A stretch of 64,000 nt of DNA from an uncultured delta proteobacterium. Its GTDB lineage: Bacteria; Desulfobacterota; Desulfobacteria; Desulfobacterales; UBA11574. Below the pieces are notes generated by a model. It had not been told where the DNA came from and searched no databases. It saw nothing but the letters and a program-made list of their open reading frames with translations. Positions 7,963-64,000 of this stretch are shown here, piece by piece. The stretch spans positions 180,681 to 244,680 of the forward strand of contig CAWBNO010000034.1 in NCBI GenBank assembly GCA_963790095.1, given 5' to 3'. Position numbers and translations under genes: made by a program. Each line of letters starts with the position of its first letter. The first letter of the stretch is position 1.

Positions 7963-8001
7963 GCCTAAAATGAGCTAAAATGCCAAAAAGTGCCTATTTA
8001 T
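7963..8001. repeat. Second phased GCCTAAAAT/GAGCTAAAAT array (4 units)
   Basis: Contains an exact copy of the 22-mer GCCTAAAATGAGCTAAAATGCC at 7963-7984. Lies 90-130 bp upstream of the minus-strand TPR start at 7873. Confidence 0.65.
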
Positions 8002-8190
8002 CCCGTATTAGATGGGGAAATTAAGGGAAGCGCTTTCAGGGCAAATCATTCTAAACAATTATTTTAACAAACCCGTAAGCATAAAACAAGGGCCCAAACC
8101 ACCCTTTGCAGTGGGAACGCATTCGATTTCGGTACAGCGAAGCGACGGCGTGTTTCTTTTGGATAGCGATGGTTGCTTATTTGTTTTCAA

Positions 8191-8219
8191 TTGACACCAA
8201 CATCCCATTTCTCTATATT
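8191..8219 (+). promoter_or_regulatory. Sigma-70-type promoter for the BMP ABC transporter operon
   Basis: TTGACA (8191-8196), a 17-nt spacer and TATATT (8214-8219). The ATG at 8250 is preceded by GAAGGAGG. Confidence 0.55.
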
Positions 8220-8249
8220 TATTGTAACAAAAATCGAAGGAGGTGCTGT

Positions 8250-9311
8250 ATGCGTAGGGCAATGTTTATTGGGGTTTTTATCTCTGTTTTCACCTGGGGT
8301 GTCGCTTTTGCGGCGGATTCGCCGATGAAGGTCGGATTCGTTTATGTTTCACCCATCGGCGACGCTGGTTGGTCGTATGCCCACGACCTGGGAAGACAGA
8401 GCATCGAGGCCATGGACGGGGTAACCACGTCATTTGTCGAAGATGTCCCCGAAGGGCCGGATTCCGAGCGTGTCATGCTCAATATGGCCAGAAAAAATTA
8501 CAACCTGATATTTGCAACCAGTTACGGGTATATGGACCCCATGCTCAAGGTGGCCAAACAGTTCCCCGACATTGTCTTTATGCATTGCTCCGGGTTCAAA
8601 ACCGCAAAGAATATGGGGAACTACTTCGGGCGAATGTATCAGGCTCGATATCTTTCGGGAATGGTGGCCGGTGCCATGACCCAATCCAAAATACTGGGTT
8701 ATGTGGCGGCATTTCCAATTCCAGAGGTCATCCGGGGCATCAATGCCTTTGCACTCGGGGCACAGTCCGTGAATCCCGATATCAAGGTTCGGGTGGTTTG
8801 GACCAAAACCTGGTACGATCCGGCCACTGAAAAAGAAGCTGCCAAAAGCCTTCTGGATGTGGGAGCGGATGTGATCGCCCAGCATCAGGATTCGCCGGCA
8901 CCACAGGAAGCCGCGCAGGAAAAGGGGGTTTATTCTGTGGGATACAATTCCGATATGTCCAAGTTTGCTCCCAAGTCCCACCTTTGCGCACCCATATGGA
9001 ACTGGAGTTCATTCTACAAAGAAATGGTGGAAAAAGTTCGACAGGGCACTTGGAAAAGCGAGTCCATCTGGTACGGTCTTGAATACGGAATCGTGGATAT
9101 CACCCCAATGGGAAGCATGGTTCCGGAAGCGGTTCAAAAGCGCGTTTTGGCCAAAAAAGTCGAAATCGCCTCCGGCAAGGCCAAGGTGTTTGTGGGCCCC
9201 ATAAAAGATCAGTCCGGCAAGCTTCGCATCCCAAAGGACACGCCTGCTAACGATAAGGAATTGCTGGGCATGACCTGGTTTGTCGAGGGCGTCGTCGGAA
9301 CAACACAGTAA
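8250..9311 (+). CDS. BMP-family (basic membrane protein/PnrA-like) ABC transporter substrate-binding protein
   Basis: ORF 8106..9311. The likely start is ATG 8250 (MRRAMFIGVFISVFTWGVAFA signal peptide). Contains KVGFVYVSPIGDAGWSYAHD and YGYMDP..., typical of the purine-nucleoside-binding BMP family. Confidence 0.85.
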   Translation: MRRAMFIGVFISVFTWGVAFAADSPMKVGFVYVSPIGDAGWSYAHDLGRQSIEAMDGVTTSFVEDVPEGPDSERVMLNMARKNYNLIFATSYGYMDPMLKVAKQFPDIVFMHCSGFKTAKNMGNYFGRMYQARYLSGMVAGAMTQSKILGYVAAFPIPEVIRGINAFALGAQSVNPDIKVRVVWTKTWYDPATEKEAAKSLLDVGADVIAQHQDSPAPQEAAQEKGVYSVGYNSDMSKFAPKSHLCAPIWNWSSFYKEMVEKVRQGTWKSESIWYGLEYGIVDITPMGSMVPEAVQKRVLAKKVEIASGKAKVFVGPIKDQSGKLRIPKDTPANDKELLGMTWFVEGVVGTTQ

Positions 9312-16713: not shown

Positions 16714-17394
16714 ATGTGTGGAAGATTCGTTCAAAACAGTTTGTTATACACCCTCCTGCAAGTTTTCGACGCAGAGACGGCATTGCTTGACCGGGTCCCG
16801 AACTATAATGTGGCGCCCACCCAAAAAATTCTTTCCATTGTCAGACATGGGCATAAGAACAAGCTGGAGACGCTTCATTGGGGCCTGGTGCCGTTTTGGG
16901 CAAAGGACATTTCCATGGGCGCCGGAATGATCAATGCACGGGCCGAGACAGTTGCGGAAAAGCCCAGTTTTCGGAATGCATTCAAAAAACGTCGTTGCCT
17001 GATCCCTGCAGACGGTTTTTATGAATGGAAAGGTAAAAAAGGAAACAAGCAGCCCTACTATATTACCGGGCCTTCGGATGGACCCTTTGCCTTTGCCGGC
17101 CTGTGGGAAGAATGGACCGACAAAAAATCCGACGACGACTTCGTGTACACATCCTGCACCATCATCACCACCCCGTCAAGGGGATCTCTTCGTGAAATTC
17201 ACCATCGAATGCCGGTCGTCCTGTCATCGGGATTCCATGAAAAATGGTTGAATACCGATGCACAAGATCCCAAAACCTTAAAGATCATTCTCCAAGAAGG
17301 CATGGTCCATGATTTTAAATATCATCCGGTATCAAAACGCGTCAACGCCGTTAAAAAAAACGATCCGAGCTGTATCGAGCCCATATCTGTTTGA
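16714..17394 (+). CDS. SOS response-associated peptidase (SRAP/YedK family, abasic-site processing)
   Basis: 226 aa. Contains the N-terminal MCGRF catalytic Cys2, NVAPTQ, WGLVPFWAKD, INARAET and ADGFYEW. Confidence 0.88.
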   Translation: MCGRFVQNSLLYTLLQVFDAETALLDRVPNYNVAPTQKILSIVRHGHKNKLETLHWGLVPFWAKDISMGAGMINARAETVAEKPSFRNAFKKRRCLIPADGFYEWKGKKGNKQPYYITGPSDGPFAFAGLWEEWTDKKSDDDFVYTSCTIITTPSRGSLREIHHRMPVVLSSGFHEKWLNTDAQDPKTLKIILQEGMVHDFKYHPVSKRVNAVKKNDPSCIEPISV

Positions 17395-18235: not shown

Positions 18236-18592
18236 CTATTCCAATCCCAACAATTTGCTGTACGTTTGTAACAGATTCATTACAAATGAATGGATTTTAT
18301 CATTGGTTTCAAGGAACTGAATTCCAGTTCGATACTTTTCAAAATCGTCTGCATGGCAATATATGACCTTGCCCTGGATACCGACCCATCGACCTTCAAT
18401 GTCGATGGTCAGTTGTAGGATATCTTCCCATTCAAGGGGATCGCTGGTTTCGATGAGGATTCCCCCCAGGCTTATATTGATCGCCTTTCCGCTTCCCGCC
18501 TTCATAGGGTTGCCCTGGTCATCTTTACAAACATAGGCGATGAGATTGCTGATCTCGACCCTCGGATGTTTTCTTCGTTCGATGAATGTCAA
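18236..18592 (-). CDS. PilZ domain protein (putative c-di-GMP receptor)
   Basis: 118 aa with RRKHPRVEI (the RxxxR element) and AINISLGGILIET (the D/NxSxxG element). Confidence 0.7.
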   Translation of the reverse strand: MTFIERRKHPRVEISNLIAYVCKDDQGNPMKAGSGKAINISLGGILIETSDPLEWEDILQLTIDIEGRWVGIQGKVIYCHADDFEKYRTGIQFLETNDKIHSFVMNLLQTYSKLLGLE

Positions 18593-18631
18593 ACCTAAAC
18601 GCCTCCTTGGGAAACTGTCGGTGCAGCTTTC

Positions 18632-18703
18632 TTTGATGAAGTCGCAAAAAGTCTTTTGTGAGCGACATCGAGCAAAATCAGACTCTTTACGAGTTCATCT
18701 TCT
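18632..18703. mobile_element. Foldback MITE-like repeat (TCGTAAAAAGTC family), short degenerate form
   Basis: TTTGATGAAGTCGCAAAAAGTCTTTTGTGAGCGACATCGAGCAAAATCAGACTCTTTACGAGTTCATCTTC. It has the same core as the 54428-54504 copy. Confidence 0.65.
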
Positions 18704-18787
18704 TTGAGCCCGGCTTTTTTTGCCGGAGTTTTCTCCAAATGGTTTTTCTCCAAATCTACGGTCTTGAACGATTCACTGTCAATATCT

Positions 18788-26367: not shown

Positions 26368-27924
26368 TTATAATAAATATTTGAGTGCGGTCTTTCGAAA
26401 GGACTCGATTTGGGTTTTCTGCCAATTTTTATCTTTTTTTAATTCAGCGGCCATCAATTCCGCCACCGCCGGGGCCATGTTCATGGCGGCCCGGGCGTCT
26501 AAGAATAAGACGCGGCGGCGGCGTGCCAGAAAGTCTTCGACCGTGCGCGCCATCTCGGCTTTTACCGCCCAGATCACTTCCCCGCGGATGATGGTCCCCC
26601 CGGGCAATGGCGCACCCCAGTCGGGCTCATTTTTTACCAGTCTCTGTATTTCCAGCGCGTCCGTCCCGTAATCCTTTAAATTTTCGAACTGATCGGCATG
26701 ATGGTGATACCCGTGTATCTGCAGGGTTTCGGTCACCGAGGGCCGATGGTTGAGACGGGCAAGGACGATTGCCTGGTCCACGGTCTCTTGGGCCATCTTC
26801 CGGTACGTGGTCCATTTTCCCCCGGCGATGGTTATCAGTCCGGATCGGGAAATCGACAGGGTGTGCTCCCTTGAAATAGTGGCGGTTTCAAGATTCTGTT
26901 TGGCGCTCACCAGGGGGCGAAGACCGGCAAACATGCTCAGAACATCTCCGGGTTCAGGATCTTTGGAAAGATATCGTGCGGTATGCTTTAACAGAAATTC
27001 TATTTCATGGTCCATGGGCAACGGCGCCATGGACACGTCCTCCACCGGCGTATCGGTGGTGCCCACAAGGACCCGGTGGTGCCAGGGAATCGCGAAAAGC
27101 ACCCGGCCGTCGTCGGTGTGGGGAACCATAATGGCAGTTTTTCCCGGCAGAAAAGATCTGTCCAGGACAATGTGAACCCCCTGGCTGGGCCGCATGAACG
27201 GCAGCGTCCCAGGGTCATCCATCCGGCGGATCCGGTCGCTGAATACGCCCGTAGCATTGATGACCGCCCGGGATTTCAACTCATACTCCCGGCCGCTTTC
27301 CAGATCCCGGGCAATGACGCCCTCCATCAGATCGTTTTTTTTGATCAGCTTTTCCACCGTTATGTAATTGACGAGGGCCCCCCCCTGCTCCGCCGCAGTT
27401 TGCGCCAGGTTGACAACCAGACGGGAGTCGTCGAACTGCCCGTCGTGATAGATGACCCCGCCCCGCAACCCGTCGGTTTCCACCGTTGGAATTTTCTCCA
27501 GGGTTTCTTCCTTGGACAGAATTTCCGAGGGGCCGAAGCCCTCTTTACCGGCCAGCATGTCGTAGAGTTTCAAACCGATTCCGTAAAACGGCCCTTCCCA
27601 CCAGTCATAGGTGGGAACGATGAACGGCAAATCGTGCACCAGATGGGGGGCGTTGCGCCGCAATATGCCGCGCTCCTTCAATGCCTCTAACACCAAGGCC
27701 ACATTTCCCTGCTGCAGATACCGAACGCCCCCATGGATCAATTTGGTGCTTCGACTGGAGGTCCCGGATGAAAAGTCGTTTTGCTCCAAAAGTGCGATCC
27801 GGTAGCCCCGGGAGGCGGCTTCCAGGGCAACGCCCACACCGGTGGCGCCCCCGCCGATCACAATAAAATCCCATTTCCGACCGGCATCGGCAATTCTTGC
27901 GAGCATTTCTTCTCTGTTCATCAT
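26368..27924 (-). CDS. glpD: FAD-dependent glycerol-3-phosphate dehydrogenase/oxidase
   Basis: 518 aa with DFIVIGGGATGVGVALEAASRG, SSRSTKLIHGGVRYL and GGKWTTYR. Confidence 0.9.
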   Translation of the reverse strand: MMNREEMLARIADAGRKWDFIVIGGGATGVGVALEAASRGYRIALLEQNDFSSGTSSRSTKLIHGGVRYLQQGNVALVLEALKERGILRRNAPHLVHDLPFIVPTYDWWEGPFYGIGLKLYDMLAGKEGFGPSEILSKEETLEKIPTVETDGLRGGVIYHDGQFDDSRLVVNLAQTAAEQGGALVNYITVEKLIKKNDLMEGVIARDLESGREYELKSRAVINATGVFSDRIRRMDDPGTLPFMRPSQGVHIVLDRSFLPGKTAIMVPHTDDGRVLFAIPWHHRVLVGTTDTPVEDVSMAPLPMDHEIEFLLKHTARYLSKDPEPGDVLSMFAGLRPLVSAKQNLETATISREHTLSISRSGLITIAGGKWTTYRKMAQETVDQAIVLARLNHRPSVTETLQIHGYHHHADQFENLKDYGTDALEIQRLVKNEPDWGAPLPGGTIIRGEVIWAVKAEMARTVEDFLARRRRVLFLDARAAMNMAPAVAELMAAELKKDKNWQKTQIESFRKTALKYLL

Positions 27925-35796: not shown

Positions 35797-36179
35797 AAAT
35801 ACTTTCCTGGTGGCTGACGGGTTAAACCGTGCCAGTTATGCCCCTTAAAAGACACAAAAAGCCGCCTCGGCACGTTTGCCGGACGGCTTTGTTTGGTTTT
35901 TGATATTGTATCCGGCGGCATTGCCAAGGGCCATGGCCATGGCCGCCGTTTTTTTACCTAAATCGATATTACAGTATGGATGTTCACATATCGTTTGTTT
36001 TTTAATTAATCAATCTTTTTTATGGGTGCTGGTGGAATTAACCGAAAAGAACGATCTCTGTCCAGCGGGCTGGAATCCTTCCCCCCATAGCGACATCCTC
36101 CATGGGCACGTTTCTTTTAATACTAATCACGATTCAAGATTTGACAAGAGAATCTACTTACTTGCATGATAAAAGATAG

Positions 36180-40052: not shown

Positions 40053-40302
40053 ATTAAAGTCCTTTTAGCACGGGTTGTTCACCATTTACAACGGAATAAC
40101 ACGACGGAACACATCCGCATCATGGCGTATCCCGCCGGCAACCGACCTGTCCCAAGGTGCCGGCAACAGAATCACCTGTGTGCAACGGAAACACTTCCTG
40201 GATGCCGGATCAAGTCCGCACAAGGGTTTTCAGCGAGCCATGCTTCCTGTATGCCCCAGCCGGAAACCCGCGGAAAACGCAGATCCGGACCAAAAAGGTC
40301 AT

Positions 40303-40422
40303 TTATGGATGGAAACTATCCTGATTGTGCTTTTTCTTTTCCTCCTTTTCTTTGCGTTTTTCTTTAATGGTTTTTGCCGGCTTCTTTCTCACATCCTTTT
40401 TCGTGTCTCTCGACTTTCCCAT
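40303..40422 (-). CDS. Possible 39-aa lysine-rich small protein
   Basis: Not in the ORF track (<60 aa). CAGGAGGGAAAAAA precedes the ATG at 40422. Product: MGKSRDTKKDVRKKPAKTIKEKRKEKEEKKKHNQDSFHP. This could be a chance ORF in a purine-rich tract. Confidence 0.3.
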   Translation of the reverse strand: MGKSRDTKKDVRKKPAKTIKEKRKEKEEKKKHNQDSFHP

Positions 40423-40447
40423 TTTTTTCCCTCCTGATGGATCCATT

Positions 40448-40501
40448 GGGGACGCATCCCAGTTAAATACAAGCAACAACGTTTAACGGGATGCGCCCCC
40501 C
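40448..40501 (+). repeat. Hairpin containing an inverted partial copy of the R element loop module
   Basis: GGGGACGCATCC-CAGTTAAATACAAGCAACAACGTTTAAC-GGGATGCGCCCC. The loop matches the reverse complement of R element positions such as 49359-49388. Confidence 0.65.
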
Positions 40502-40659: not shown

Positions 40660-40866
40660 CTATGGTTGTTGGGTTGCCTCTTTTACCATGGCTTTGTATT
40701 GTTCAGGTTGTAACGTGGACATCCGATGGATAAAAGCCACAATATCCAATGTAAGGGACCAATGAGGCACCCTGGCGGAAAAATTGTAAATACCTGAAAA
40801 AACAAACCCTGCTATCCCCCCTATGATCACGACCATGGCCAAAATAAAACCCGCAAATACTTTCAT
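40660..40866 (-). CDS. Small membrane protein (68 aa)
   Basis: The likely start is MKVFAGFILAMVVIIGGIAGFVFSGIYNFSARVPHW... It resembles the N-terminal anchor of some membrane c-type cytochromes as I recall them, but no CxxCH is present, so it is possibly a truncated remnant. Confidence 0.4.
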   Translation of the reverse strand: MKVFAGFILAMVVIIGGIAGFVFSGIYNFSARVPHWSLTLDIVAFIHRMSTLQPEQYKAMVKEATQQP

Positions 40867-41003
40867 TTTCCACCTCCGTATCACCAACAGTTATAGTTGC
40901 CGCGGCTTCTTTCGGATAGTCAGTTACAACGGCATTCTATTCACAATTCAAGGTTCAAGGTTTGACACCCTTTTCCTCCAAATCCAAACGCCGCTAGCCT
41001 ATT

Positions 41004-48060: not shown

Positions 48061-48246
48061 TTATCCGTTCTCCGGATATTTGTAAACGTTCAAACCGATG
48101 ATAGCATCCGTACCATCAACCTTCTGGTTGCCCCGTGTGCTGGCAATGGTTATTGTTTTTCCGGATTTTGAGGGTCCGAAGTCCTTTTTCAAATCTATCT
48201 CAATAATTAATTTATCGTCTTTAATTTCCCATTCCACGTTCTGCAT
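48061..48246 (-). CDS. Small hypothetical protein (61 aa)
   Basis: An internal ATG at 48246 is preceded by GAAGGTGAAGAA. Product: MQNVEWEIKDDKLIIEIDLKKDFGPSKSGKTITIASTRGNQKVDGTDAIIGLNVYKYPENG. The longer ORF form would overlap the HD gene. Confidence 0.5.
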   Translation of the reverse strand: MQNVEWEIKDDKLIIEIDLKKDFGPSKSGKTITIASTRGNQKVDGTDAIIGLNVYKYPENG

Positions 48247-48337
48247 TTCTTCACCTTCTTTCGTCTTTTCGTCTATACCATTTTGAATGCACCCCCAATG
48301 TCTCATGTCTTGTTTATTTAAATCAGGGGGGAGATAA

Positions 48338-48988
48338 TTACATTTGGCCACGTCTCTTTTTTTCAATATTTTCTATTTTCTTTAAGAGCCTCTTGGTGTT
48401 TTTTTGCTTCTCCTTTTCTCTCAACTTTTTCTGAGATTCAGTATAATATTGGTGTTTATTTAAAAATTCGAGGGTACCTTTGTACCATTTTGCTTCATCA
48501 CTAACATCTATTCCTCTTTCACTCCGCCCATCTCTTACTTTTCCATCTAATTTGAAAAAATCTTCTCTGCCGAGGTGGTCGAGATCGGCATCACAAAGAA
48601 TTTTTTCAAGATGGGTTTTCGGTTCACGCTCAAGATCGGTTGATAGTATCATCTTTTGAACCTTTACAACTTCGTTTGGCTTATAACCGATCAATTTAAG
48701 GATTCTGCCTGCCATTCGTGCCGCAATCGGCTCATTTTTTTCATATTCTCTAATGTAACCCGTGTCATGGAAATAGGCCGCAGTAATTAATAATTCTCTA
48801 TCATGTTCGGAGATATTCTCAGATATTGCAATACTGTTGGCAGCAGCAACGACTCCTTTGGTAGGATGAAGTGTGTGATCAGCATCATGATATTTAATGC
48901 CGGCTGGCAACTCATCTCTAAATAACTCCCTTATATAGTGGTCCACGATTTTCAGCCGAGGTGTATGAGGCTTGTATCTTAGTCGCAT
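48338..48988 (-). CDS. HD domain metal-dependent phosphohydrolase
   Basis: 216 aa with KYHDADHTLH, AAYFHDTGY and CDADLDHLG (an H..HD..D arrangement) and a Lys-rich C-terminal tail. Very AT-rich: line 48361-48420 has 18/60 G+C by hand count, against 32/60 for 9421-9480. Confidence 0.75.
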   Translation of the reverse strand: MRLRYKPHTPRLKIVDHYIRELFRDELPAGIKYHDADHTLHPTKGVVAAANSIAISENISEHDRELLITAAYFHDTGYIREYEKNEPIAARMAGRILKLIGYKPNEVVKVQKMILSTDLEREPKTHLEKILCDADLDHLGREDFFKLDGKVRDGRSERGIDVSDEAKWYKGTLEFLNKHQYYTESQKKLREKEKQKNTKRLLKKIENIEKKRRGQM

Positions 48989-49045
48989 ATCTATATTCCC
49001 TTTACTTTTGTAGGTGTTATGGTTATTTCAGGTTCTTGAAAATAT

Positions 49046-49076
49046 GATTCTTCTCCAATTTTGTTGGAGAAGAATC
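49046..49076 (-). terminator. Hairpin with a partial U-run (possible intrinsic terminator); member of a 2-copy hairpin family
   Basis: GATTCTTCTCCAA-TTTTG-TTGGAGAAGAATC is a perfect 13-bp stem. On the minus strand it is followed by ATATTTTC. A related hairpin lies at 51180-51207. Confidence 0.4.
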
Positions 49077-49274
49077 TTGACGGTTTCGTAAAAAGTCTTT
49101 TGTGAGCGACATCGAGCAATTTTGGAGAAAGACTCATGATGCGCCTGGCGTTAAAAATTGCAAGCTGCTTGAGGGTGTTAGCCCGAGTTCTTGCAATTTA
49201 GCCAGGCGGGTCAAGAATCCCAAAATTGCTTGCGGAGCGATCAAAATCAGACTTTTTACGAGTTCATCAATCTT
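49076..49274. mobile_element. Foldback MITE-like repeat (TCGTAAAAAGTC family), long ~200-bp form
   Basis: CTTGACGGTTTCGTAAAAAGTC...GACTTTTTACGAGTTCATCAATCTT. Nested complementary arms are present (ATTTTGG/CCAAAAT, GCCTGGC/GCCAGGC, AAAATTGCAAG/CTTGCAATTT). The outer ~75 nt equals the short form at 54428-54504. Confidence 0.8.
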
Positions 49275-49277
49275 AAT

Positions 49278-49391
49278 AATTAAGATTTATCCCGCCTGTT
49301 GGAGCGTAGCGGAAATCCCGTTATCGGGGCTCCGTAGGTAGTTTACTATCCTACTGGGGTTAAACGGTGTTGCTTGTATTTAACTGGGATC
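49278..49391 (-). repeat. R element copy A (structured interspersed repeat)
   Basis: The 95-nt core TATCCCGCCTGTTGGAGCGTAGCGGAAATCCCGTTATCGGGGCTCCGTAGGTAGTTTACTATCCTACTGGGGTTAAACGGTGTTGCTTGTATTTA is shared with copies B and C. The stop codon of ORF 49360..50631 lies inside it (GTTAAAC). Confidence 0.85.
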
Positions 49392-50631
49392 CACCTCTCC
49401 TGTCTTTCCCTGCCTGTTGGGCGAATACCCGGAATCGGCGTGCTTCCTCCTCGTTTCCCATCGAAGCATATATTCGGCTGATCTTCTGAAAATATAACGG
49501 AGCATTTTTCGGATCATCCTGAACCAGGGAAAGATACATTTCCATAATCCCTGAAGAATGCTGGCCTAAATCAAAGCTGATATCTGCGAATCTTCGTTTG
49601 ATCAGAGGATCGGTTCGGGAATGACAGCTGCGGCACTGATCCATAATTTTGGCATATAAATCCCGGGCGCTTTCAAGGTCTCCCAATGTCTCCAATGTGC
49701 CGGCAAGGGCAATCGATAGTGGTTGGTTCCATCCGTATGCTTCCATGGAATCTTGATATAAAGAGGCGGCTTCCGGATGCCTCCCGGCCTGAGATAGGGT
49801 TTCGCCACGGAGCAGGACATAGGCCAAAGAGTTTTTAAGGTCATCCGGACAATCGGCAAGAAGGGTTTCAGCCTGATCAAAAGCCCCTATTTCCCAGTAA
49901 ACCTCGCAAAGCAACTGATAACCCGGCAGAGCATCCAGATGATGTTTGAGAAAGGTCTCCAGCAGACGGCGGGCTTCATCCAATTTCCCAAGGTTCAGGT
50001 TGGCCGTGGCCAGCTCAAGGGGGATAATTGAATCCGGGGCAGGGTTCTCCTCCAAGGCCTGTGACAGTTTATCGGCTGCAAGATCAAAGTCTCCCCGGTT
50101 CAGTGCAAGATAACCGGTTTTAAAGGACCCTCCATAGGAAATGTAGGCCTCCTGCACCTCTTCGGGCAGTGCACTGCAGAGTGCCATAAAAGTCTCATCG
50201 TCCTGATCACCGGTGAATGTCTCGTCATCGCCGAGGGGAGTCAGGTCAGATTGAGGCACTTCCATTTGAATATCTCCGGCTGTGATGCGCTCAATCTCAT
50301 GCATAAGTTTCTCAACAGCGGATATCAATGCAGGGTCCCGGGTCAAGTCGAGGGCCAATTGAAGAAGCCTCCTCGCCTCATCGTAATATTCGGCCTCCAT
50401 CAAATCTTCAGCGGCCTGCCGGTGTTCGTGTGCCAGGGCCCCTTTGGCCTGAACCAGTTTATCCCGAAGCCTTTTTACTGAAGCATCATCAGCCGATGTT
50501 TTTTCCAATGCGGCCAGAGTCTTTTCGAATTCAAGTTTTGCCCTGCCCCAATCGGAGACCTTTAAAAAGGCATCACCCTTCTGCTCGGTCTTTCCAGGAT
50601 CTTGACCGAAAAACTTTTTGAGAAGTCCCAT
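49360..50631 (-). CDS. TPR repeat protein
   Basis: 423 aa with multiple 34-aa A/L/Y-patterned repeats. The C-terminal 8 residues (QLNTSNTV) are encoded by R element copy A. Confidence 0.75.
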   Translation of the reverse strand: MGLLKKFFGQDPGKTEQKGDAFLKVSDWGRAKLEFEKTLAALEKTSADDASVKRLRDKLVQAKGALAHEHRQAAEDLMEAEYYDEARRLLQLALDLTRDPALISAVEKLMHEIERITAGDIQMEVPQSDLTPLGDDETFTGDQDDETFMALCSALPEEVQEAYISYGGSFKTGYLALNRGDFDLAADKLSQALEENPAPDSIIPLELATANLNLGKLDEARRLLETFLKHHLDALPGYQLLCEVYWEIGAFDQAETLLADCPDDLKNSLAYVLLRGETLSQAGRHPEAASLYQDSMEAYGWNQPLSIALAGTLETLGDLESARDLYAKIMDQCRSCHSRTDPLIKRRFADISFDLGQHSSGIMEMYLSLVQDDPKNAPLYFQKISRIYASMGNEEEARRFRVFAQQAGKDRRGGSQLNTSNTV

Positions 50632-50919
50632 AAGCTCAGAATCCTTTTGCCCTTATCAAGAAAGGAGTTGTAAATGAGTTGATTCAAACAATTATCACAA
50701 ACCGTCTCCCATTCCCGATATCATATCCTCCAAGACAGCATCCGATTAATATCATTGAAGATTGGGTTTGTAAATCTTGAACTTTTGGGGATCTTTATTT
50801 GGACGATGTAATGAAACGTATTTAACCGGTGCCCCCCTTGTTTTCCAGGAAATGGGTAAGAAACAGGATGAGGCTGGAGCCAAGCTCCAACTCCATCCCA
50901 AAATCGGAACGGAATACGA

Positions 50920-51153
50920 CTACACTTTTAAGCAGAACATGGTGTGTGTGTCTCTAATGCCGCCAATGACTCTTATCTTGTCATATGTCACAGAAAGCAT
51001 ACTGGCGTCATCAGGAGTCTGTACCTCAGCCACGATATCAAAACGCCCGGCAGCCAAATAGACATTTTTTACCCCTTCGATTTTCTTGACTTGACCAGCG
51101 ACCTCACGGTCGACACCCGGATTTGACTTAATTAGAATAATTGCCTTTGCCAT
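50920..51153 (-). CDS. Stand-alone Lrp/AsnC-type ligand-binding (RAM) domain protein
   Basis: The likely start is ATG 51153 (RBS GAAAGGAG). Product: MAKAIILIKSNPGVDREVAGQVKKIEGVKNVYLAAGRFDIVAEVQTPDDASMLSVTYDKIRVIGGIRDTHTMFCLKV, 77 aa with no HTH. Confidence 0.7.
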   Translation of the reverse strand: MAKAIILIKSNPGVDREVAGQVKKIEGVKNVYLAAGRFDIVAEVQTPDDASMLSVTYDKIRVIGGIRDTHTMFCLKV

Positions 51154-51179
51154 GATATAATCTCCTTTCAAAGTAAAGG

Positions 51180-51207
51180 TTCTTCTCCAATTTAGTTGAG
51201 AGAAGAA
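51180..51207 (-). terminator. Hairpin with a U-rich tail (possible intrinsic terminator), related to 49046-49076
   Basis: TTCTTCTC-N12-GAGAAGAA. On the minus strand it is followed by CCTTTACTTT. It sits between R element copy B and the RAM-domain gene. Confidence 0.35.
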
Positions 51208-51210
51208 GCA

Positions 51211-51335
51211 CAATTAAGATATATCCCGCCTGTTGGAGCGTAGCGGAAATCCCTTTATCGGGGCTCCGTAGGTAGTTTACTATCGTATTGGGGTTAAACG
51301 GTGTTGCCTGTATTTAAATAGGATGCGACCCCATG
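51211..51335 (-). repeat. R element copy B
   Basis: 4 mismatches to copy A over the 95-nt core (hand alignment). The minus-strand 5' part ACATGGGGTCGCATCCTATTTAAATAC supplies the last residues (GSHPI) and the stop of ORF 51314..51904. Confidence 0.85.
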
Positions 51336-51904
51336 TCTTCAGGCAGCACCTCACCGAATTCCACACCGATTCCCTGGGAATCAATCCGAACCACTTTACC
51401 ACTCACTGTCAGGTCTTTTTCGGCTCGGGAGAGAGAGAAGGTCATTGTGATCTCCTGACCAATTTTAAAGCTGAAATCGGTATGAATAAAGACACCGCCA
51501 TGACTTAAATTCTGAATGAAACACATATAGGTAAAACCGTTGGTGGAGACTTCGACAGGCGCAGAAAAAGGTCTTCGGGGAAACTCCCTTAACTCGGTGT
51601 GTTTGGAACGATACCAGTTGGTCAGCTTTTCCAGAAGTTCCCGTCTTTTTGCTTCAGATATACTGGTAATGAGCGATGACAGGTCTTTTCTATGTTCGGT
51701 TTTGGATAATTTAGATTTTAATACGGAGTTAAGGTTTCTCCGTTCAGCTTCGGACATGAAGGAAATGATTTGAAACAACAGAGAGTTTACCTCATATATA
51801 TTAAATTCCTCTTTGTTGTTCGGCATGAATAGAATCCTTATCTCGTGTCTTTCGTCTATAATCTCCCGAATGCCTTCTTGAAATATCGAGGATATCAAAA
51901 GCAT
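51314..51904 (-). CDS. PilZ domain protein (C-terminal PilZ, N-terminal helical region)
   Basis: 196 aa (alternative start at 51826, MPNNKEEF). Contains the PilZ motifs PRRPFSAPVEV (RxxxR-like) and IQNLSHGGVFIHT (NxSxxG). Confidence 0.7.
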   Translation of the reverse strand: MLLISSIFQEGIREIIDERHEIRILFMPNNKEEFNIYEVNSLLFQIISFMSEAERRNLNSVLKSKLSKTEHRKDLSSLITSISEAKRRELLEKLTNWYRSKHTELREFPRRPFSAPVEVSTNGFTYMCFIQNLSHGGVFIHTDFSFKIGQEITMTFSLSRAEKDLTVSGKVVRIDSQGIGVEFGEVLPEDMGSHPI

Positions 51905-52008
51905 ATAATATTAAGGAATTAATGTCAATCGACACAGATCGCATCCTCCAGAACAAATGGGCAGGAATGAGGTTTAGAACCTAATTGACTTGTTTGTGGA
52001 TGTCCCGT

Positions 52009-52227
52009 TTATTTCCCAAAGTCCGAAAAAGACGGGCCGAAACAAGGATCAAGCATACCACCCGCTCCGGTATACTCTTCTCGCATTCTCATGGTGGAGG
52101 AAGACATTAGTTTCGCCACATTCTTACCCTGGCATTCGGGGCATTGGGGGGGGGGATCATTGGAAGACAGCAATAGTATTTCAAAGCAGTGAGAACAGTC
52201 TTTACACTCATAGTCATAAATTGGCAT
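52009..52227 (-). CDS. FmdB-family zinc-ribbon protein
   Basis: MPIYDYECKDCSHCFE...PPPQCPECQG. This is the second paralogue in the window. Confidence 0.75.
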   Translation of the reverse strand: MPIYDYECKDCSHCFEILLLSSNDPPPQCPECQGKNVAKLMSSSTMRMREEYTGAGGMLDPCFGPSFSDFGK

Positions 52228-52521
52228 TGGCTCCTCCGCAAAAAAATAACAGTTGATTAATCAGAAGCCATTTTTATAACACCAATATCCAAAATTAATC
52301 AATCTTTATATTTAATGGTCGATCCGATTGCCAGACAAGCAACTTACAAACTTATGTTCTCAAATCCACACATATGATTAACAGAATTTCAATTTGGGGC
52401 ATCACGTCACGGGGGGTTCATGTAACCATGACAAACCTGATTCCATATAGTTATATTGTTGGATACAGGTATTATTAGGCGTCATGTCCAAATATTTGGC
52501 AAAATAAATCCTCCGAGAGAT

Positions 52522-52650
52522 TTAATTCAAAATGGTAAGAAATTTCGAACCATTTAAAATCTCTGTGGAATAACTTATTACGGCAAAGGTAATGTACGAT
52601 AAAGACATAAGGCTAGCGATAATTAAGATTAGGGTATTCATTGTTTTCAC
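52522..52650 (-). CDS. Possible 42-aa hydrophobic peptide
   Basis: Not in the ORF track. AAGGAGGTGCAACA precedes the GTG at 52650. Product: VKTMNTLILIIASLMSLSYITFAVISYSTEILNGSKFLTILN*. One predicted TM segment. Speculative. Confidence 0.3.
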   Translation of the reverse strand: MKTMNTLILIIASLMSLSYITFAVISYSTEILNGSKFLTILN

Positions 52651-52784
52651 TGTTGCACCTCCTTTATGCTTTGAGGTGTCTTCATTTTCTATAAAAAAGA
52701 TGATTTGTGTTTCACCATAAAGTTAATGCCACTTTGTGGTATGTCAAGGGTCATTAGAATTACCCCCGGGGTATGCACTGAAAG

Positions 52785-52821
52785 GATAAAAAGAGACCCC
52801 TGCCAGAATGACTGACAGGGG
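52785..52821 (-). terminator. Intrinsic terminator (minus strand)
   Basis: The minus strand reads CCCCTGTCAG-TCATT-CTGGCAGGGG followed by TCTCTTTTTATCC. The stem is 10 bp with one mismatch. Confidence 0.65.
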
Positions 52822-52857
52822 CTATGTTCTTTGTCAGATGAATTTGATCTCTGTTAG

Positions 52858-53071
52858 CTCGTTTCCATCCATAAATGGCTATTTTTCCGATGAGCGGCGT
52901 TCTCCGCGGATTTCCGTCCTCGACGAACAGGCGTACGCCTCGGGCGAAAACCCTTGTGCCTGCCCCGTGAAATGCGAAGCATATTTAACTGGGTCGGCCT
53001 TGCTCATCGAAAAAACATCTCATTTATGAATTGGAAACTACTCAGTACTCGAATGTGTTTATGGATGGAAA
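52858..53071 (-). ncRNA. Candidate structured RNA / degenerate repeat between the PilZ gene and the terminator
   Basis: Long-range complementarity: 52862-52875 pairs with 53058-53071 (14/14) or alternatively with 53021-53038 (imperfect), and 52882-52895 pairs with 53002-53015 (13/14). There is a central palindrome AGGCGTACGCCT. It contains GGATTTCCG-N9-AACAGGCG (52908-52933), the inverse of the R element module, and TATTTAACTGGG (52982-52993). Confidence 0.35.
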
Positions 53072-53081
53072 ATAGTTCATT

Positions 53082-53402
53082 TTACAAGGCTTTTAAACTC
53101 TCAATCTGACATTCTCTGTCAAATTGAATCGCAATACCGTGAGGGGAGGAACGCACCATGCTTCCTGTGCAGCAAGTCAGACTCTCTATATCGTTAAATT
53201 CTTGAAGGTTGTCAGACGGGATGGTGAAATCCAGTATAAACCGTGTCCTATCCGGAAAAGAAGTTAGTGTAACAATGAATGTTCCAGAATAAGATATGTC
53301 TCTGGTTTCAAGGTCTAAAACCTTTTTTCTGTCTAATGATATGGTTTCCAGTCTCACAGGGAGAGGAATTTTTAGCCTTGTATATTGACGTCTCTCTTCC
53401 AT
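53082..53402 (-). CDS. PilZ domain protein
   Basis: 106 aa with ERRQYTRLKI (RxxxR) and TRDISYSGTFIVT (DxSxxG). Confidence 0.7.
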   Translation of the reverse strand: MEERRQYTRLKIPLPVRLETISLDRKKVLDLETRDISYSGTFIVTLTSFPDRTRFILDFTIPSDNLQEFNDIESLTCCTGSMVRSSPHGIAIQFDRECQIESLKAL

Positions 53403-53576
53403 TGGAAACCCCTTTCGTGGGTGAGGTTAAATACCGATAAAACGTTAGAATAAGAAGCTCTGAAAAAACAATATGGTCTTAATGTTTCGGTTTCAATCAA
53501 AAATATCAACATCAAAAATCCTATTTCGAACCACGAAAAGGGAATATATTCAGATTTTTTAGCACTGTTCAAACTC

Positions 53577-53697
53577 TATCTATCCCGCCTGTTGGAGCGT
53601 AGCGGAAATCCCGTTATCGGGGCCCCGTAGGTCGTTTTCTATCGTACTGGGGTTAAACGTTGTTGCTTGAATTTATTTGGGATCCGGCCCCCATGTC
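53577..53697 (-). repeat. R element copy C
   Basis: 6 mismatches to copy A over the 95-nt core. It begins about 30 nt after the stop of the TPR gene 53728..54240. Confidence 0.85.
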
Positions 53698-53727
53698 GTT
53701 TTTAATTTAAGGGGCCCGAAAGTTCCC

Positions 53728-54240
53728 TCACTTCATCTGTTTTTTAACTTCCGAAACCAGTTCCTGATGCCGATAATTGTCCGGATCTTCTGCAAGCGCT
53801 TTTTCTCCCCAGTAAAGTGCGTTTGGCCAGTCCTTTTGCTGACGGTAATTTTCCGCAATGACATATAGTATATGCTTTAACGGTACATTTCTGACTTCAT
53901 GAGGCATATCGAGCACCTTCTTGAAATCGGCTAGGGCAAATTCGTGATTCTTTTTGACCGTGTAACAGCTTCCCCGGCCTATCAGGCTTTCCTCGTCGTA
54001 TGCGTCCAGTGCCAAAGCACGCGAGTATAACAGAATCGCATCGTCTAACCGTCCTTCGATCTCGGAAATTTTACCCAGATAAAAATAGGGATTGTCGCCG
54101 TCCTTATGGCGATAGGCAGGATCTATCTCAACAACTGCTTCGAATGCTCGAACAGCCCCAACACCGTCCGGCTTGTTGAAACATCTTATGCCTTCATTAA
54201 ACCAATCGGCCGCAGAACTTCGTGTGTCGTCGTTATCCAT
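53728..54240 (-). CDS. TPR repeat protein
   Basis: ORF 53728..54381 with a likely ATG at 54240 (MDNDDTRSSAADWFNEG). Contains several TPR-patterned repeats (YFYLGKISEIEGRLDDAILLYSRALALD...). Confidence 0.7.
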   Translation of the reverse strand: MDNDDTRSSAADWFNEGIRCFNKPDGVGAVRAFEAVVEIDPAYRHKDGDNPYFYLGKISEIEGRLDDAILLYSRALALDAYDEESLIGRGSCYTVKKNHEFALADFKKVLDMPHEVRNVPLKHILYVIAENYRQQKDWPNALYWGEKALAEDPDNYRHQELVSEVKKQMK

Positions 54241-54427
54241 GGTTAACCTTTCAAACCTTTGCAGTCTAACCCCACCCCCGGAGTTTGCTGATTTGAACCG
54301 AATTGAACGAAAGTCGGGGCTTCCCCGCCTTTGACGGTGATACGCCAGATTCCCAGCGTCAAGGAAAGATCCGACCCGCAAATCAATTTATGTTTTTATC
54401 AAACATTATTCGCTATTCAAAATTTAT

Positions 54428-54504
54428 TAAACTTGACGGTTTCGTAAAAAGTCTTTTGTGAGCGACATCGAGCAAAATCAGACTTTTTACGAGTTCATCA
54501 AACT
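54428..54504. mobile_element. Foldback MITE-like repeat (TCGTAAAAAGTC family), short 77-bp form
   Basis: AAACTTGACGGTTTCGTAAAAAGTCTTTTGTGAGCGACATCGAGCAAAATCAGACTTTTTACGAGTTCATCAAACTT. Confidence 0.8.
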
Positions 54505-54550
54505 TAATATGTTAAGAATGTCCCCTAATACAACCTGTATTATTTAGGCA

Positions 54551-54739
54551 TCAAGATCCATGAGCAAAAAGTTTATGATATTCATCGTGAGTAAGTTTGC
54601 CATTTTTATCCAAATCAGCTGCTTTAAATCTTTCATTATCATTTTCGAAAAATTTCTCAAACTCCTGAAAGGTTACTTTACCATCATTTGTTGCCCTTAC
54701 CCTTACTCTTCCCTTTGCTCTTACACTCGGGTTTTTCAT
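54551..54739 (-). CDS. EF-hand pair protein (62 aa)
   Basis: NDGKVTFQEFEKF and DLDKNGKLTHDEY are Ca-binding-loop-like sequences. No signal peptide is visible. Confidence 0.55.
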   Translation of the reverse strand: MKNPSVRAKGRVRVRATNDGKVTFQEFEKFFENDNERFKAADLDKNGKLTHDEYHKLFAHGS

Positions 54740-54912
54740 TGTAAAGATTATGGCATTGCTTTAAGGCATGGAACTCTTTTGAACCGGGCTTTATACCCAG
54801 ACTTTTCGCAATTGCGCCCCAGCCCCTTATCTTCAATAATTAACAATTAAGATTTATCCCGCCGGCCCTGCCTGTCCAATGGAATGTTTTTGAAGTTCTT
54901 ATTCCATGGGGT

Positions 54913-56535: not shown

Positions 56536-56690
56536 TGGCTTTTTTCCTTTTTATTTAAGGGACATCTTAACTTATAAACGTCCTTGTTCGAGCAGGAAAT
56601 ATTGATTCCTCCTGGCCAGGTTTTCACCCGCCCCCCCTGTTTTAATCAAGAATCAAGATTTTACCCCAGACCAAAAATTAACAATTAAGT

Positions 56691-59700: not shown

Positions 59701-60564
59701 ACCTTAATTGAGCAAAAATAGCGGCTTGTCCGCCTCTGGCGAGGATGCCCTTTAAATTACAACCCTAATTGAGCGAAAGCTTAGGATGCCCCAGATCCAA
59801 GGCATCAAGGACGAAGCCCCGCAGACAAAGCGGGATAGACCTCCGTCATCTACTGCGAGCCCTTGATAACGAAGGAGATAGGGTATTATCAGTTTTTCCG
59901 AAGGGCAAACAAAATGGGATTGTATTAAAAGATTTATATCTAATCTATAGAAGCGGTGTGAAAATACATTTGTATCAACAAAATATATAAAAAACTAATC
60001 AGTTATAATATTTTTCCCAGTTTGTTTGCGATCAATTAGGGTAAAAGTTTCTGTCTTAACCTTTGGTTTGTCAGTTTCCTGCGGGACTCGTTGTTTTTTC
60101 AAAGCAACTCAATAATTAAAAATTTAGATGCGATCCCCATGTTATTCAGTTGATTTGAGCCGCTATAAACATAAAACCCCAGCTCTATTTAGAAGCGGGG
60201 TTCCTTGTCATCATCGCATATGCTTTTCTTTTGTTTAGGGTTAAAGAACTTGTTTCAATATCTGTCATCTATTCGCATAGTTACTACAATCAGTCAAGGC
60301 TAATTTCAAAATCCTATATAGTAGCAGTTACATCGTTTAAATGGATATTTATACAGTTAGAGATATTGAGCAAGAGACATCCAATCTCCCGATTCTTAGA
60401 ATGCTTGCTTTATTTAATTCTTATTTAATCAAGAATCAAGGTTTAACCCCAGCCTTTCTTCCGCAAAAAGGTAGGTGGTATCACAAACATTTTTTCAAGA
60501 AAGGCAAAAAATCACAGATGTCCCGTTTATTTTTCCGAAGCGGTGTTAGATGAGCAACTAAGAA

Positions 60565-61564: not shown

Positions 61565-61691
61565 AGTTCACAGCGAAGGCTGATAATCAAGGATCAAGGT
61601 TTGACCCCAGCCTTTCTCAAGCTGAATGTTAATTTCAAAATATTACAAACGTTATACCACTCATATAACAGTCTTACTTAAGAAACACATC

Positions 61692-63803: not shown

Positions 63804-64000
63804 TTAGCGCCTGCGTATTAGATATGTACGAGTTAAGGCCGTGTTTAGACACTAATCAGAAGCTGTCATATCTTGATCTCAATAACAATTTAATTACAGA
63901 TATCGTTCAAAGTACGATAAACAAATCGATTTTTTTATATAGCCATTTCAAAACCTTCCGGTGAGTGATTTTTGAGTCTTTGTCGAAAAGCGCTTAGCGA

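Follow-up and report, generated by a model that had tools for sequence, protein, structure and literature searches.

How does a run of small, co-oriented genes come to be assembled on a bacterial chromosome, when the same genes stand one by one beside other neighbors in related genomes? The question is raised by positions 48061-54739 of a 64,000-nucleotide (nt) window, the whole stretch of DNA analyzed here (contig CAWBNO010000034.1 of an uncultured delta proteobacterium). An earlier note on this DNA had described the stretch as a cassette-like array of small genes separated by structured repeats. With a little more than even confidence, we read it instead as part of a chromosomal plasticity zone that covers at least 36-62 kb of the window and consists of independent single-gene modules. 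The host of the zone is an uncultured marine-sediment bacterium of the Desulfobacterales or Desulfobacteraceae: exact window proteins are found in several coastal-sediment metagenomes, and the relatives are labeled as Desulfobacterales or Desulfobacteraceae metagenome-assembled genomes. The spacers between the genes are a mosaic of lineage-specific modules, comprising a directional repeat (R), hairpins related to the 5' end of R, a further hairpin (H2), a miniature inverted-repeat transposable element (MITE) and one strongly folding element.

Ten supportable open reading frames (ORFs), all on the minus strand, occupy the stretch. Each ORF that the earlier note had listed is present at the coordinates it gave, but its count of eleven does not hold, as there is no credible eleventh. 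The domain names it had assigned were confirmed by a Pfam scan, in which eight of the ten ORFs bear named domains (lengths in amino acids, aa):

54551-54739, minus strand: EF62, 62 aa, EF-hand_1 (E = 1e-9), with one intact EF-hand loop
53728-54243, minus strand: TPR171, a small TPR protein, TPR_2 (E = 7e-17)
53082-53402, minus strand: PilZ106, 106 aa, PilZ domain with RxxxR and DxSxxG motifs
52522-52650, minus strand: orf42, a hydrophobic 42-aa candidate ORF with a ribosome-binding site (AAGGAGGTG) upstream
52009-52227, minus strand: FmdB-type zinc ribbon, 72 aa, Zn_ribbon_8 (E = 3e-15)
51314-51904, minus strand: PilZ196, PilZ domain (E = 6e-18) with RxxxR and NxSxxG motifs
50920-51153, minus strand: RAM77, a stand-alone Lrp/AsnC ligand-binding domain, AsnC_trans_reg (E = 4e-12)
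49360-50631, minus strand: TPR423, TPR domain, a widely conserved protein with a usual length of 412 aa (TPR412)
48338-48988, minus strand: HD216, an HD-domain phosphohydrolase of 216 aa, HD (E = 1e-7)
48061-48246, minus strand: orf61, 61 aa, no Pfam match, member of a large uncharacterized family

The gene order of the window was compared with that of related loci (numbered L001-L038), all of which are metagenome contigs. Three other assemblies (L003, L004 and L006) have the same order as the window over 41.5-60 kb, at 98.8-99.8% identity. Elsewhere, single-gene blocks recur at synonymous divergences (dS) of ~0.1-0.2, namely those of TPR412, TPR171, RAM77, the zinc ribbon, PilZ, HD, pgm, MFS, OsmC and GFA, in at least five replicated arrangements. 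In all, seven alternatives to the window order were each recovered from 2-4 independent samples or assemblies. Orthologues of TPR412, with 92-94% nt identity (dS 0.14-0.17; ratio of nonsynonymous to synonymous divergence, dN/dS, 0.32-0.37), occupy five neighborhoods, each of them found in at least two independent assemblies:

L012-L014: B12-binding gene, TPR412, NDH2
L015 and L016: zinc ribbon, TPR412, RAM77
L017 and L018: TPR171, TPR412, KH
L034 and L035: RAM77, TPR423 with R, DUF1059
Window: its own order, as listed above

RAM77 therefore changes sides, as it lies downstream of TPR412 in L015 and L016 and upstream of the TPR gene in the window. The TPR171 block (53698-54289, 95% nt identity) is directly upstream of TPR412 in L017 and L018, the PilZ106 block (53080-53504, 83%) follows a B12-radical-SAM gene in L030-L033, and the HD216 block (48334-49069, 90%) sits between two Guanylate_cyc-TPR genes in the four assemblies L026-L029. 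An 89% homologue of orf61 is found in a different context in L011, and zinc-ribbon blocks of 87-91% identity occur in three other contexts (L015, L022-L025 and L034). In the four assemblies L022-L025 the zinc ribbon (52 kb in the window) stands between OsmC (61 kb) and GFA (59 kb). Likewise, pgm has different neighbors in L019, L020 and L021; in L021 the order is MFS (42 kb in the window), pgm (55 kb; dS = 0.16), p36824 (37 kb) and TPR412 (50 kb).

The homology blocks are gene-sized. They comprise the coding sequence and ~17-100 nt upstream of it (up to ~180 nt for TPR412 against L017), and often stop a few nucleotides from the stop codon, with little conserved after it. Every block that matches the window keeps one relative orientation within its locus, and the junctions hold unique sequence that is not present in the window. 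The breakpoints of a given gene are not constant: those of TPR412 lie 17, 31 and ~180 nt before the start codon, depending on the relative. Synonymous divergence of the array genes is 0.08-0.24 (0.47 for PilZ106 against L030), mostly like that of pgm (0.16).

The shuffled pgm, MFS, OsmC and GFA genes could be taken to mean that the whole genome is scrambled, but this is overturned by a control region around the glycerol-3-phosphate dehydrogenase gene (26368-27924). Here the window is collinear with L036-L038 from 17.1 to 31.9 kb, over more than 13 genes, at only 85-90% nt identity, and even intergenic DNA can be aligned over a 4.3-kb block of four genes. Since 17-32 kb is collinear, the reshuffling is regional and does not involve the whole genome. 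The idea of a hypervariable locus put forward in the earlier note is thus supported, in that the locus is non-syntenic across relatives and its base composition, as described below, stands apart from the rest of the window. Its limits are another matter, as the variability is not confined to the stretch: the zone of at least 36-62 kb includes a housekeeping gene, pgm.

The spacers hold the following features:

54840-54863, minus strand: R tail remnant (GGCGGGATAAATCTTAATTGTTAA), downstream of pgm
54430-54505, unstranded: short MITE, 66-nt core at 54435-54500, target duplication AAGTT
53577-53697, minus strand: R copy C, starting where L017 homology ends, ~30 nt past the TPR171 stop codon
52861-53038, minus strand: strongly folding element bounded by ~35-nt inverted repeats, no Rfam match
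51213-51345, minus strand: R copy B, followed by hairpin H2 (51180-51207), orthologous in L034 and L035
50662-50899, minus strand: 237-nt spacer segment, not found between RAM77 and the TPR gene in L034 and partly shared with the region upstream of TPR412 in L017
49275-49409, minus strand: R copy A, orthologous in L034 and L035; L034 homology ends at 49273
49074-49274, unstranded: long MITE, 191-nt core at 49079-49269, target duplication AAGAT, between R copy A and hairpin H2
49046-49076, minus strand: hairpin H2 (TTCTTCTCCAA...TTGGAGAAGAA); also found after R copy B and after the R copy in L009
40445-40500, unstranded: complete hairpin form of the R 5' module, with an arm, the loop GTTAAATACAAGCAACAACGTTTAAC and the complementary arm

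The closest version of the array, at 92-94% nt identity, is that of L034 and L035 (two samples). Its order is a 138-aa gene, EF-hand, GYD, zinc ribbon, glycosyltransferase, PilZ170, R, RAM77, TPR423 and R, followed by other genes. Compared with the window, L034 carries an extra 2135 nt with one glycosyltransferase gene, which forms a clean insertion or deletion exactly at window position 51957/51958. The 237-nt spacer segment (50662-50899) is a further clean difference, present in the window and missing from L034. Where L034 has the GYD gene, the window has the series MITE, TPR171, R, PilZ106, structured element and orf42. At the end of the window (63854-64000), two adjacent pieces correspond to sequences that flank the GYD-domain gene in L034 (1221-1308 and 2341-2401), again a clean single-gene insertion or deletion.

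Three deletions at short repeats are seen when the window is set beside its relatives. EF62 is a deletion-fusion chimera in which a two-loop EF-hand gene is joined to the tail of the upstream gene (window 54551-54824 against L034 141-1170); ~680 nt were lost at a 9-nt microhomology (AAATGATGG), removing the 138-aa gene and the first 30 EF-hand codons. The 68-aa ORF at 40662-40866 (minus strand) is an in-frame deletion form of a 171-aa membrane-anchored cytochrome c, intact in L008 (93-608), from which 103 codons including the CRFCH heme-binding motif are missing, with the junction at a short LDI/LDM repeat. At the hairpin at 40445-40500, L007 (5560-6147) and L008 (764-1331) carry a unit composed of R and a 125-aa Cys-rich ORF (ORF125); a direct repeat of 18/21 nt encloses it, and the window has the empty site. 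In L009 (365-674), ORF125 is upstream of an R copy, and the adjoining DNA is found at 43.3 kb in the window. Such events agree with recombination at short direct repeats rather than with cutting at a fixed site.

R itself is a directional non-coding repeat of ~125-135 nt with three copies in the stretch, all oriented like the genes. The copies are 84-88% identical over 123 nt in register without gaps, and up to 96% identical by BLAST. The element is built of sub-modules: elsewhere, copies are found with loop units in duplicate, with one more core sub-repeat or with H2 at the end, so that arm, loop units, core, tail and H2 appear in varied combinations. Exact-pattern scans and an nhmmer profile search together place R in the window and in L001, L002, L005, L007-L011, L017, L030 and L034, the diverged copies of L017, L030 and L034 coming from the profile; every copy seen is co-oriented with the genes. 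The tail remnant downstream of pgm corresponds to one section of a full-length but diverged R copy in L034 (10298-10466). Exact-pattern scans with the 22-mer core of R gave 2 loci in genome contigs and 7 in metagenome contigs. These are undercounts, because copy A of L034 has two substitutions within the scanned 22-mer and the profile search finds diverged copies that the exact scans missed; the notion that R is rare was therefore dropped, and the apparent invariance of its core in alignments is partly an ascertainment bias.

R touches the edges of several blocks. Homology blocks end at copy A (49273/49410) and at copy C (53698), and the repeat has rewritten the 3' end of at least one gene. 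In four relatives TPR412 ends in QQAENEKG and a stop codon, whereas in the window the last ~8 native codons are replaced by the left end of copy A, giving a protein of 423 aa; the final codons of PilZ196 likewise extend into copy B. Copies A and B have orthologues in the L034/L035 lineage and are stable there, although its copy B has a 31-nt internal deletion. R occurs at only 3 of the 10 gene junctions and the remaining junctions carry unrelated sequence, so the proposal that each ORF is followed by a conserved structured element fails. The repeats are real and co-oriented, but the R copies are not structured as had been supposed: their folding z-scores of 0 to -1.4 are no better than those of shuffled sequences, with only short local hairpins, and RNAalifold on nine copies gave a covariation term of +0.92 and one compensatory pair, which is no support for covariation. 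A role for R as an RNA was rejected on these results, and one as coding sequence because a 20-nt insertion or deletion between copies breaks any reading frame.

The MITE is present in five copies in the 64 kb, the other three lying at 1.1, 4.3 and 18.6 kb. Its terminal inverted repeats have arms of 22-40 nt that are 75-82% complementary, and it has no coding capacity; the internal part of the long form is shared with the 4.3-kb copy. Target-site duplications of 5 bp can be read from the sequence on four copies (AAGTT, AAGAT, AAAGA and AAACT). The 18.6-kb copy is missing in L036, which keeps a single AAAAAGG-type site, and L034 homology stops at 54501, the exact edge of the short MITE core. The short and long elements were thus correctly called MITEs from the window alone, and their insertion is a source of variation between relatives; the sequence is unrelated to any named family tested. 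A PilZ gene outside the stretch (18236-18592, minus strand) adjoins one MITE copy (18630-18705).

The description of a structured region with a terminator also stands. The segment 52785-53085 (minus strand) has a minimum free energy of -108.8 kcal/mol against -72.9 kcal/mol for shuffled sequences (z = -6.8), and a terminator-like stem-loop with a T-run (52796-52822) follows the element at 52861-53038, which is either a non-coding RNA or a MITE-like insert. Its terminal motif GTTTCCATCCATAAA recurs at 53058-53071 and 40301-40315. Two further sets of motifs were seen at or near gene ends. One is the co-oriented intergenic motif TAATCAAGRATCAAGGTTTRACCCCAGCC, which lies shortly downstream of five genes, with all copies within the variable zone. 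The other comprises boundary motifs found in several genomes, namely CACATAAGTTTATAAGTTGCTT, CTTAACATATTAAGTT and GGGGGTYAGGTAAC followed by a GTTAAAT...UUCG...ATTTAAC hairpin. Their positions are:

36127-36148, 40948-40969, 56643-56676, 60426-60459 and 61584-61617, co-oriented: copies of TAATCAAGRATCAAGGTTTRACCCCAGCC
52355-52377 and 54503-54516 of the window, ~660-685 of L010, 1850-1870 and 3813-3835 of L021, and ~7930-7990 of L012 and L015: boundary motifs CACATAAGTTTATAAGTTGCTT/CTTAACATATTAAGTT/GGGGGTYAGGTAAC

Taken as a plasticity zone, the locus would most likely owe its gene order to repeated excision, deletion and re-insertion by recombination at short co-oriented intergenic repeats and microhomologies. 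Recombination between co-oriented repeats deletes or translocates and never inverts, which would be the reason that module orientation is preserved. MITE transposition would add to the change in the spacers, and integron-type machinery would not be needed.

Several observations weigh against this account. Most breakpoints lie at no recognizable repeat, and their positions differ for the same gene; therefore, repeat-mediated exchange is established for a few events only. The stable-region control represents one relative lineage sampled three times, the compared metagenome contigs may come from genomes that are not equally related throughout, and the arrangement of L021 rests on a single assembly. 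In L012, the 5' end of the gene for isoleucyl-tRNA synthetase (IleRS; 16938-17237 against window 3777-4076) is saturated at synonymous sites at 76% nt identity, whereas TPR412 (8001-9222 against window 49410-50631), 8 kb from it, has a dS of 0.16. This discordance hints at horizontal exchange at the level of single genes and not at internal rearrangement alone; either such exchange or a xenologous IleRS gene is possible.

The alternatives are taken here from the more to the less probable. An unlikely variant of the plasticity zone holds that, in a defined zone of this clade and at a dS of only ~0.1-0.2, single genes are permuted, with their orientation kept, by a dedicated or semi-dedicated mechanism, with R, its hairpin relatives and TAATCAAGRATCAAGG serving as portable recombination sites. 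If true, it would amount to 'cassettes' that need neither attC sites nor IntI, with housekeeping-type genes moved as well.

It is also unlikely that the stretch is a horizontally acquired genomic island whose foreign origin accounts for its low G+C content and atypical codon usage. The AT-richness that prompts this explanation is genuine. G+C is 42.8% in the stretch against 47.4% in the whole window, and no segment of the same size wholly outside the stretch is as low. Mean G+C at third codon positions (GC3) is 0.42 for the array genes and 0.54 for the 46 other genes (Mann-Whitney p = 3e-4), so that G+C content and GC3 both distinguish the stretch from the rest of the window. The discordant divergence of IleRS and TPR412 in L012 would also agree with a foreign origin. 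However, the GC3 difference is weaker against the 17 other genes of ≤220 aa (p = 0.07), small genes elsewhere in the window having similar values, and the low G+C would follow from small, weakly biased genes together with 35% of AT-rich spacer (the coding share of the stretch is only ~64%). The variable zone also reaches well past the low-G+C stretch. There is no flanking tRNA gene, the sole one of the window being at 7.2 kb, and no integrase or conjugation gene among the scanned ORFs; Rfam searches returned only tRNA and noise, with gathering thresholds over the whole window and E-value thresholds over 47.5-55.2 kb. Finally, these genes are widespread within the clade, and for most of them synonymous divergence is close to the pgm value in the close relative.

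This commonness bears on the label 'accessory' as well. It suits the variability of the locus but not the rarity of its genes, whose clusters at 90% identity have 21-232 members, with the exception of the EF-hand ORF (2 members). With dN/dS values against orthologues of 0.07-0.54, the array genes appear to be genuine and to encode mostly single-domain binding or adaptor proteins.

It is less probable still that the genes form a functional second-messenger module, in which PilZ, HD, EF-hand, RAM and TPR proteins would be kept together for one cyclic di-GMP (c-di-GMP) or cyclic-nucleotide pathway. RxxxR and D/NxSxxG motifs define c-di-GMP-binding PilZ domains, and both PilZ proteins carry the canonical pair (RQYTR and DISYSG in PilZ106; REFPR and NLSHGG in PilZ196). 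HD216 is flanked by two nucleotidyl-cyclase genes in relatives, a setting that hints at a role in cyclic-nucleotide turnover, and the adjacency of PilZ170, RAM77 and TPR423 is common to L034 and L035. Such a module is unlikely mainly because the genes are not neighbors in most relatives. Moreover, the HD protein lacks the GYP motif in its 216-aa sequence and matches only the generic HD model, HDIG being below cut-off; EF62 is a truncated fusion product; a further PilZ gene is found at a distance of 30 kb; and the spacers of 100-430 nt within the array, one with a terminator-like site, argue against a single operon. The cyclic-nucleotide link suggested by the earlier note gains limited support from the PilZ motifs and the setting of HD216. 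Scans for promoters and terminators yielded no more sites than shuffled sequences do and are therefore uninformative on whether the 'cassettes' are promoterless.

The proposed enrichment in ligand-binding modules is weak, given a third PilZ gene (the one beside the 18.6-kb MITE) and another TPR gene outside the stretch. The co-directionality of the ORFs is real within the stretch but not special to it, as the minus strand holds nearly all genes from 13.5 to 64 kb. Among the individual genes, PilZ196 probably starts at 51826, which would give 170 aa, the length of most members of its 90% cluster; a promoter-like site lies upstream at 51928-51900. For orf42, a good ribosome-binding site is the sole support: it has no family match in Pfam or NCBIfam, and its exact sequence is absent from the protein collection searched. 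In the NCBIfam scan only the FmdB zinc-ribbon model reached its curated cut-off, with nothing more specific elsewhere, and the PADLOC defense-system models gave nothing significant. The family of orf61 has 1007 cluster representatives at E ≤ 1e-3, in which the domain stands singly or in 2-4 tandem copies, the tandem forms being proteins of 300-400 aa. An AlphaFold2 model of orf61 is small and all-beta, with a predicted local distance difference test (pLDDT) score of 93.5, and Foldseek found no match to it among PDB folds.

A true site-specific cassette system, whether an integron, a cluster of attC sites lacking integrases (CALIN) or an analogue, with R or its hairpin as the site and a recombinase outside the window, is very improbable. 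The likeness is one of behavior. As in integron arrays and CALINs, the modules are co-oriented, mostly small and single-gene, they are re-ordered or present and absent in relatives, their G+C is lower, and a conserved repeat of ~125 nt, equal in size to the Vibrio cholerae repeats, lies between some of them. The unit of R and ORF125 is present or absent at the hairpin site, and the side of R on which the same ORF stands differs between genomes. In addition, the words GTTAAAC and GTTTAAC in the R hairpin match the letters of the integron core-site consensus. An attC site is an imperfect palindrome of 57-141 nt in which a 5' RYYYAAC pairs with a 3' GTTRRRY, and a CALIN does not require intI. In the R hairpin the order of the two words is opposite to that of an attC site, and a regular expression, used as a simple proxy, found no RYYYAAC...GTTRRRY pair in attC geometry on the two strands of 47.5-55.5 kb. 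R does not have the form of an imperfect palindrome with R''/L''-L'/R' boxes, it lacks a significant fold or covariation, and it accompanies only 3 of the 10 genes, with copies A and B being stable orthologues in L034 and L035.

The behavior of the modules also departs from that of cassettes. Relatives reshuffle the same genes without R at the junctions concerned, and crossover points are not fixed, the breakpoints of one gene differing by tens to more than 100 nt between relatives. Upstream rather than downstream flanks are carried along, and the moved units include housekeeping-type genes, such as pgm, and a 504-aa MFS transporter. The earlier note had already remarked that the window holds no integrase. 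In agreement, no integrase, tyrosine recombinase or transposase was found among the ~30 window ORFs scanned with Pfam, the rest being judged by their first ~60 residues; the only additional DNA-acting proteins in the scanned ORFs are an HNH nuclease, a GIY-YIG protein and an SRAP protein. Membership of the integrons or CALINs is therefore rejected, and what remains of the integron comparison is the resemblance of co-oriented modules that come and go. A dif/Xer-like hairpin arm was also considered and set aside, as its spacing does not fit a 28-bp site (by inspection only).

We give almost no weight to the explanation that the reshuffling was produced by chimeric metagenome assemblies, joined at short repeats that they share. 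All comparison sequences are indeed metagenome contigs, and some junctions do hold short repeated motifs (such as CTTAACATATTAAGTT and CACATAAGTTTATAAGTT in L021). Against this explanation, the window order recurs in three other assemblies, each of the seven alternative arrangements recurs in 2-4 independent samples or assemblies, and the junctions hold unique sequence.

A plasticity zone of single-gene modules can be set beside several other known systems. REP/BIME mosaic elements and the 127-nt ERIC/IRU elements are dispersed intergenic repeats of Enterobacteria. Like them, R is non-coding, dispersed, multi-copy, modular, ~125-135 nt long and located between co-oriented genes, and its copy content varies. 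Unlike them, R is not palindromic over its full length, a complete hairpin being formed only by the related site at 40445-40500; it is strictly co-oriented with the genes; and it overlaps and rewrites their 3' ends. The 66/191-nt element resembles the Correia-type MITEs of Neisseria in its inverted repeats, 5-bp duplications, dispersed copies and empty site, whereas R itself has neither terminal inverted repeats nor identifiable duplications. In the pdif modules of Acinetobacter plasmids, gene modules bounded by Xer sites recur in different contexts. Here too there are discrete gene modules in different contexts, bounded in the plasmids by short conserved sites, but the locus is chromosomal, and inspection of the boundaries showed no XerC/XerD-type site of 28 bp.

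Among repeat-rich genomes that lose their gene order rapidly, the closest parallel is Microcystis aeruginosa, where this loss occurs at very low divergence in the presence of many repeats (PMC3741299, PMC2442094). The low synteny of that species is described as genome-wide and accompanied by many insertion sequences (PMC3741299, PMC2442094), whereas here the scrambling is regional, the neighboring 15 kb are collinear, orientation is kept in every block that matches the window, and the window has no insertion sequence. A literature search brought up no relevant account of such reshuffling in Desulfobacterales. The kinds of features seen here (plastic regions, dispersed repeats and MITEs) are already known; what is new is the directional repeat family R that rewrites gene 3' ends and the MITE with clear target-site duplications, to which a strongly structured candidate RNA is added.

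If the reshuffling is borne out by closed genomes, the locus would be a compact natural case in which one zone is scrambled fast while its neighbor stays collinear. It raises the question of whether short directional intergenic repeats may serve as portable homology that moves genes without a dedicated recombinase. R, the MITE and the candidate RNA also matter for annotating, binning and assembling the genomes of abundant marine-sediment sulfate reducers, as seen from contig L004, which ends inside an R copy, and contig L006, which ends ~60 nt from one.

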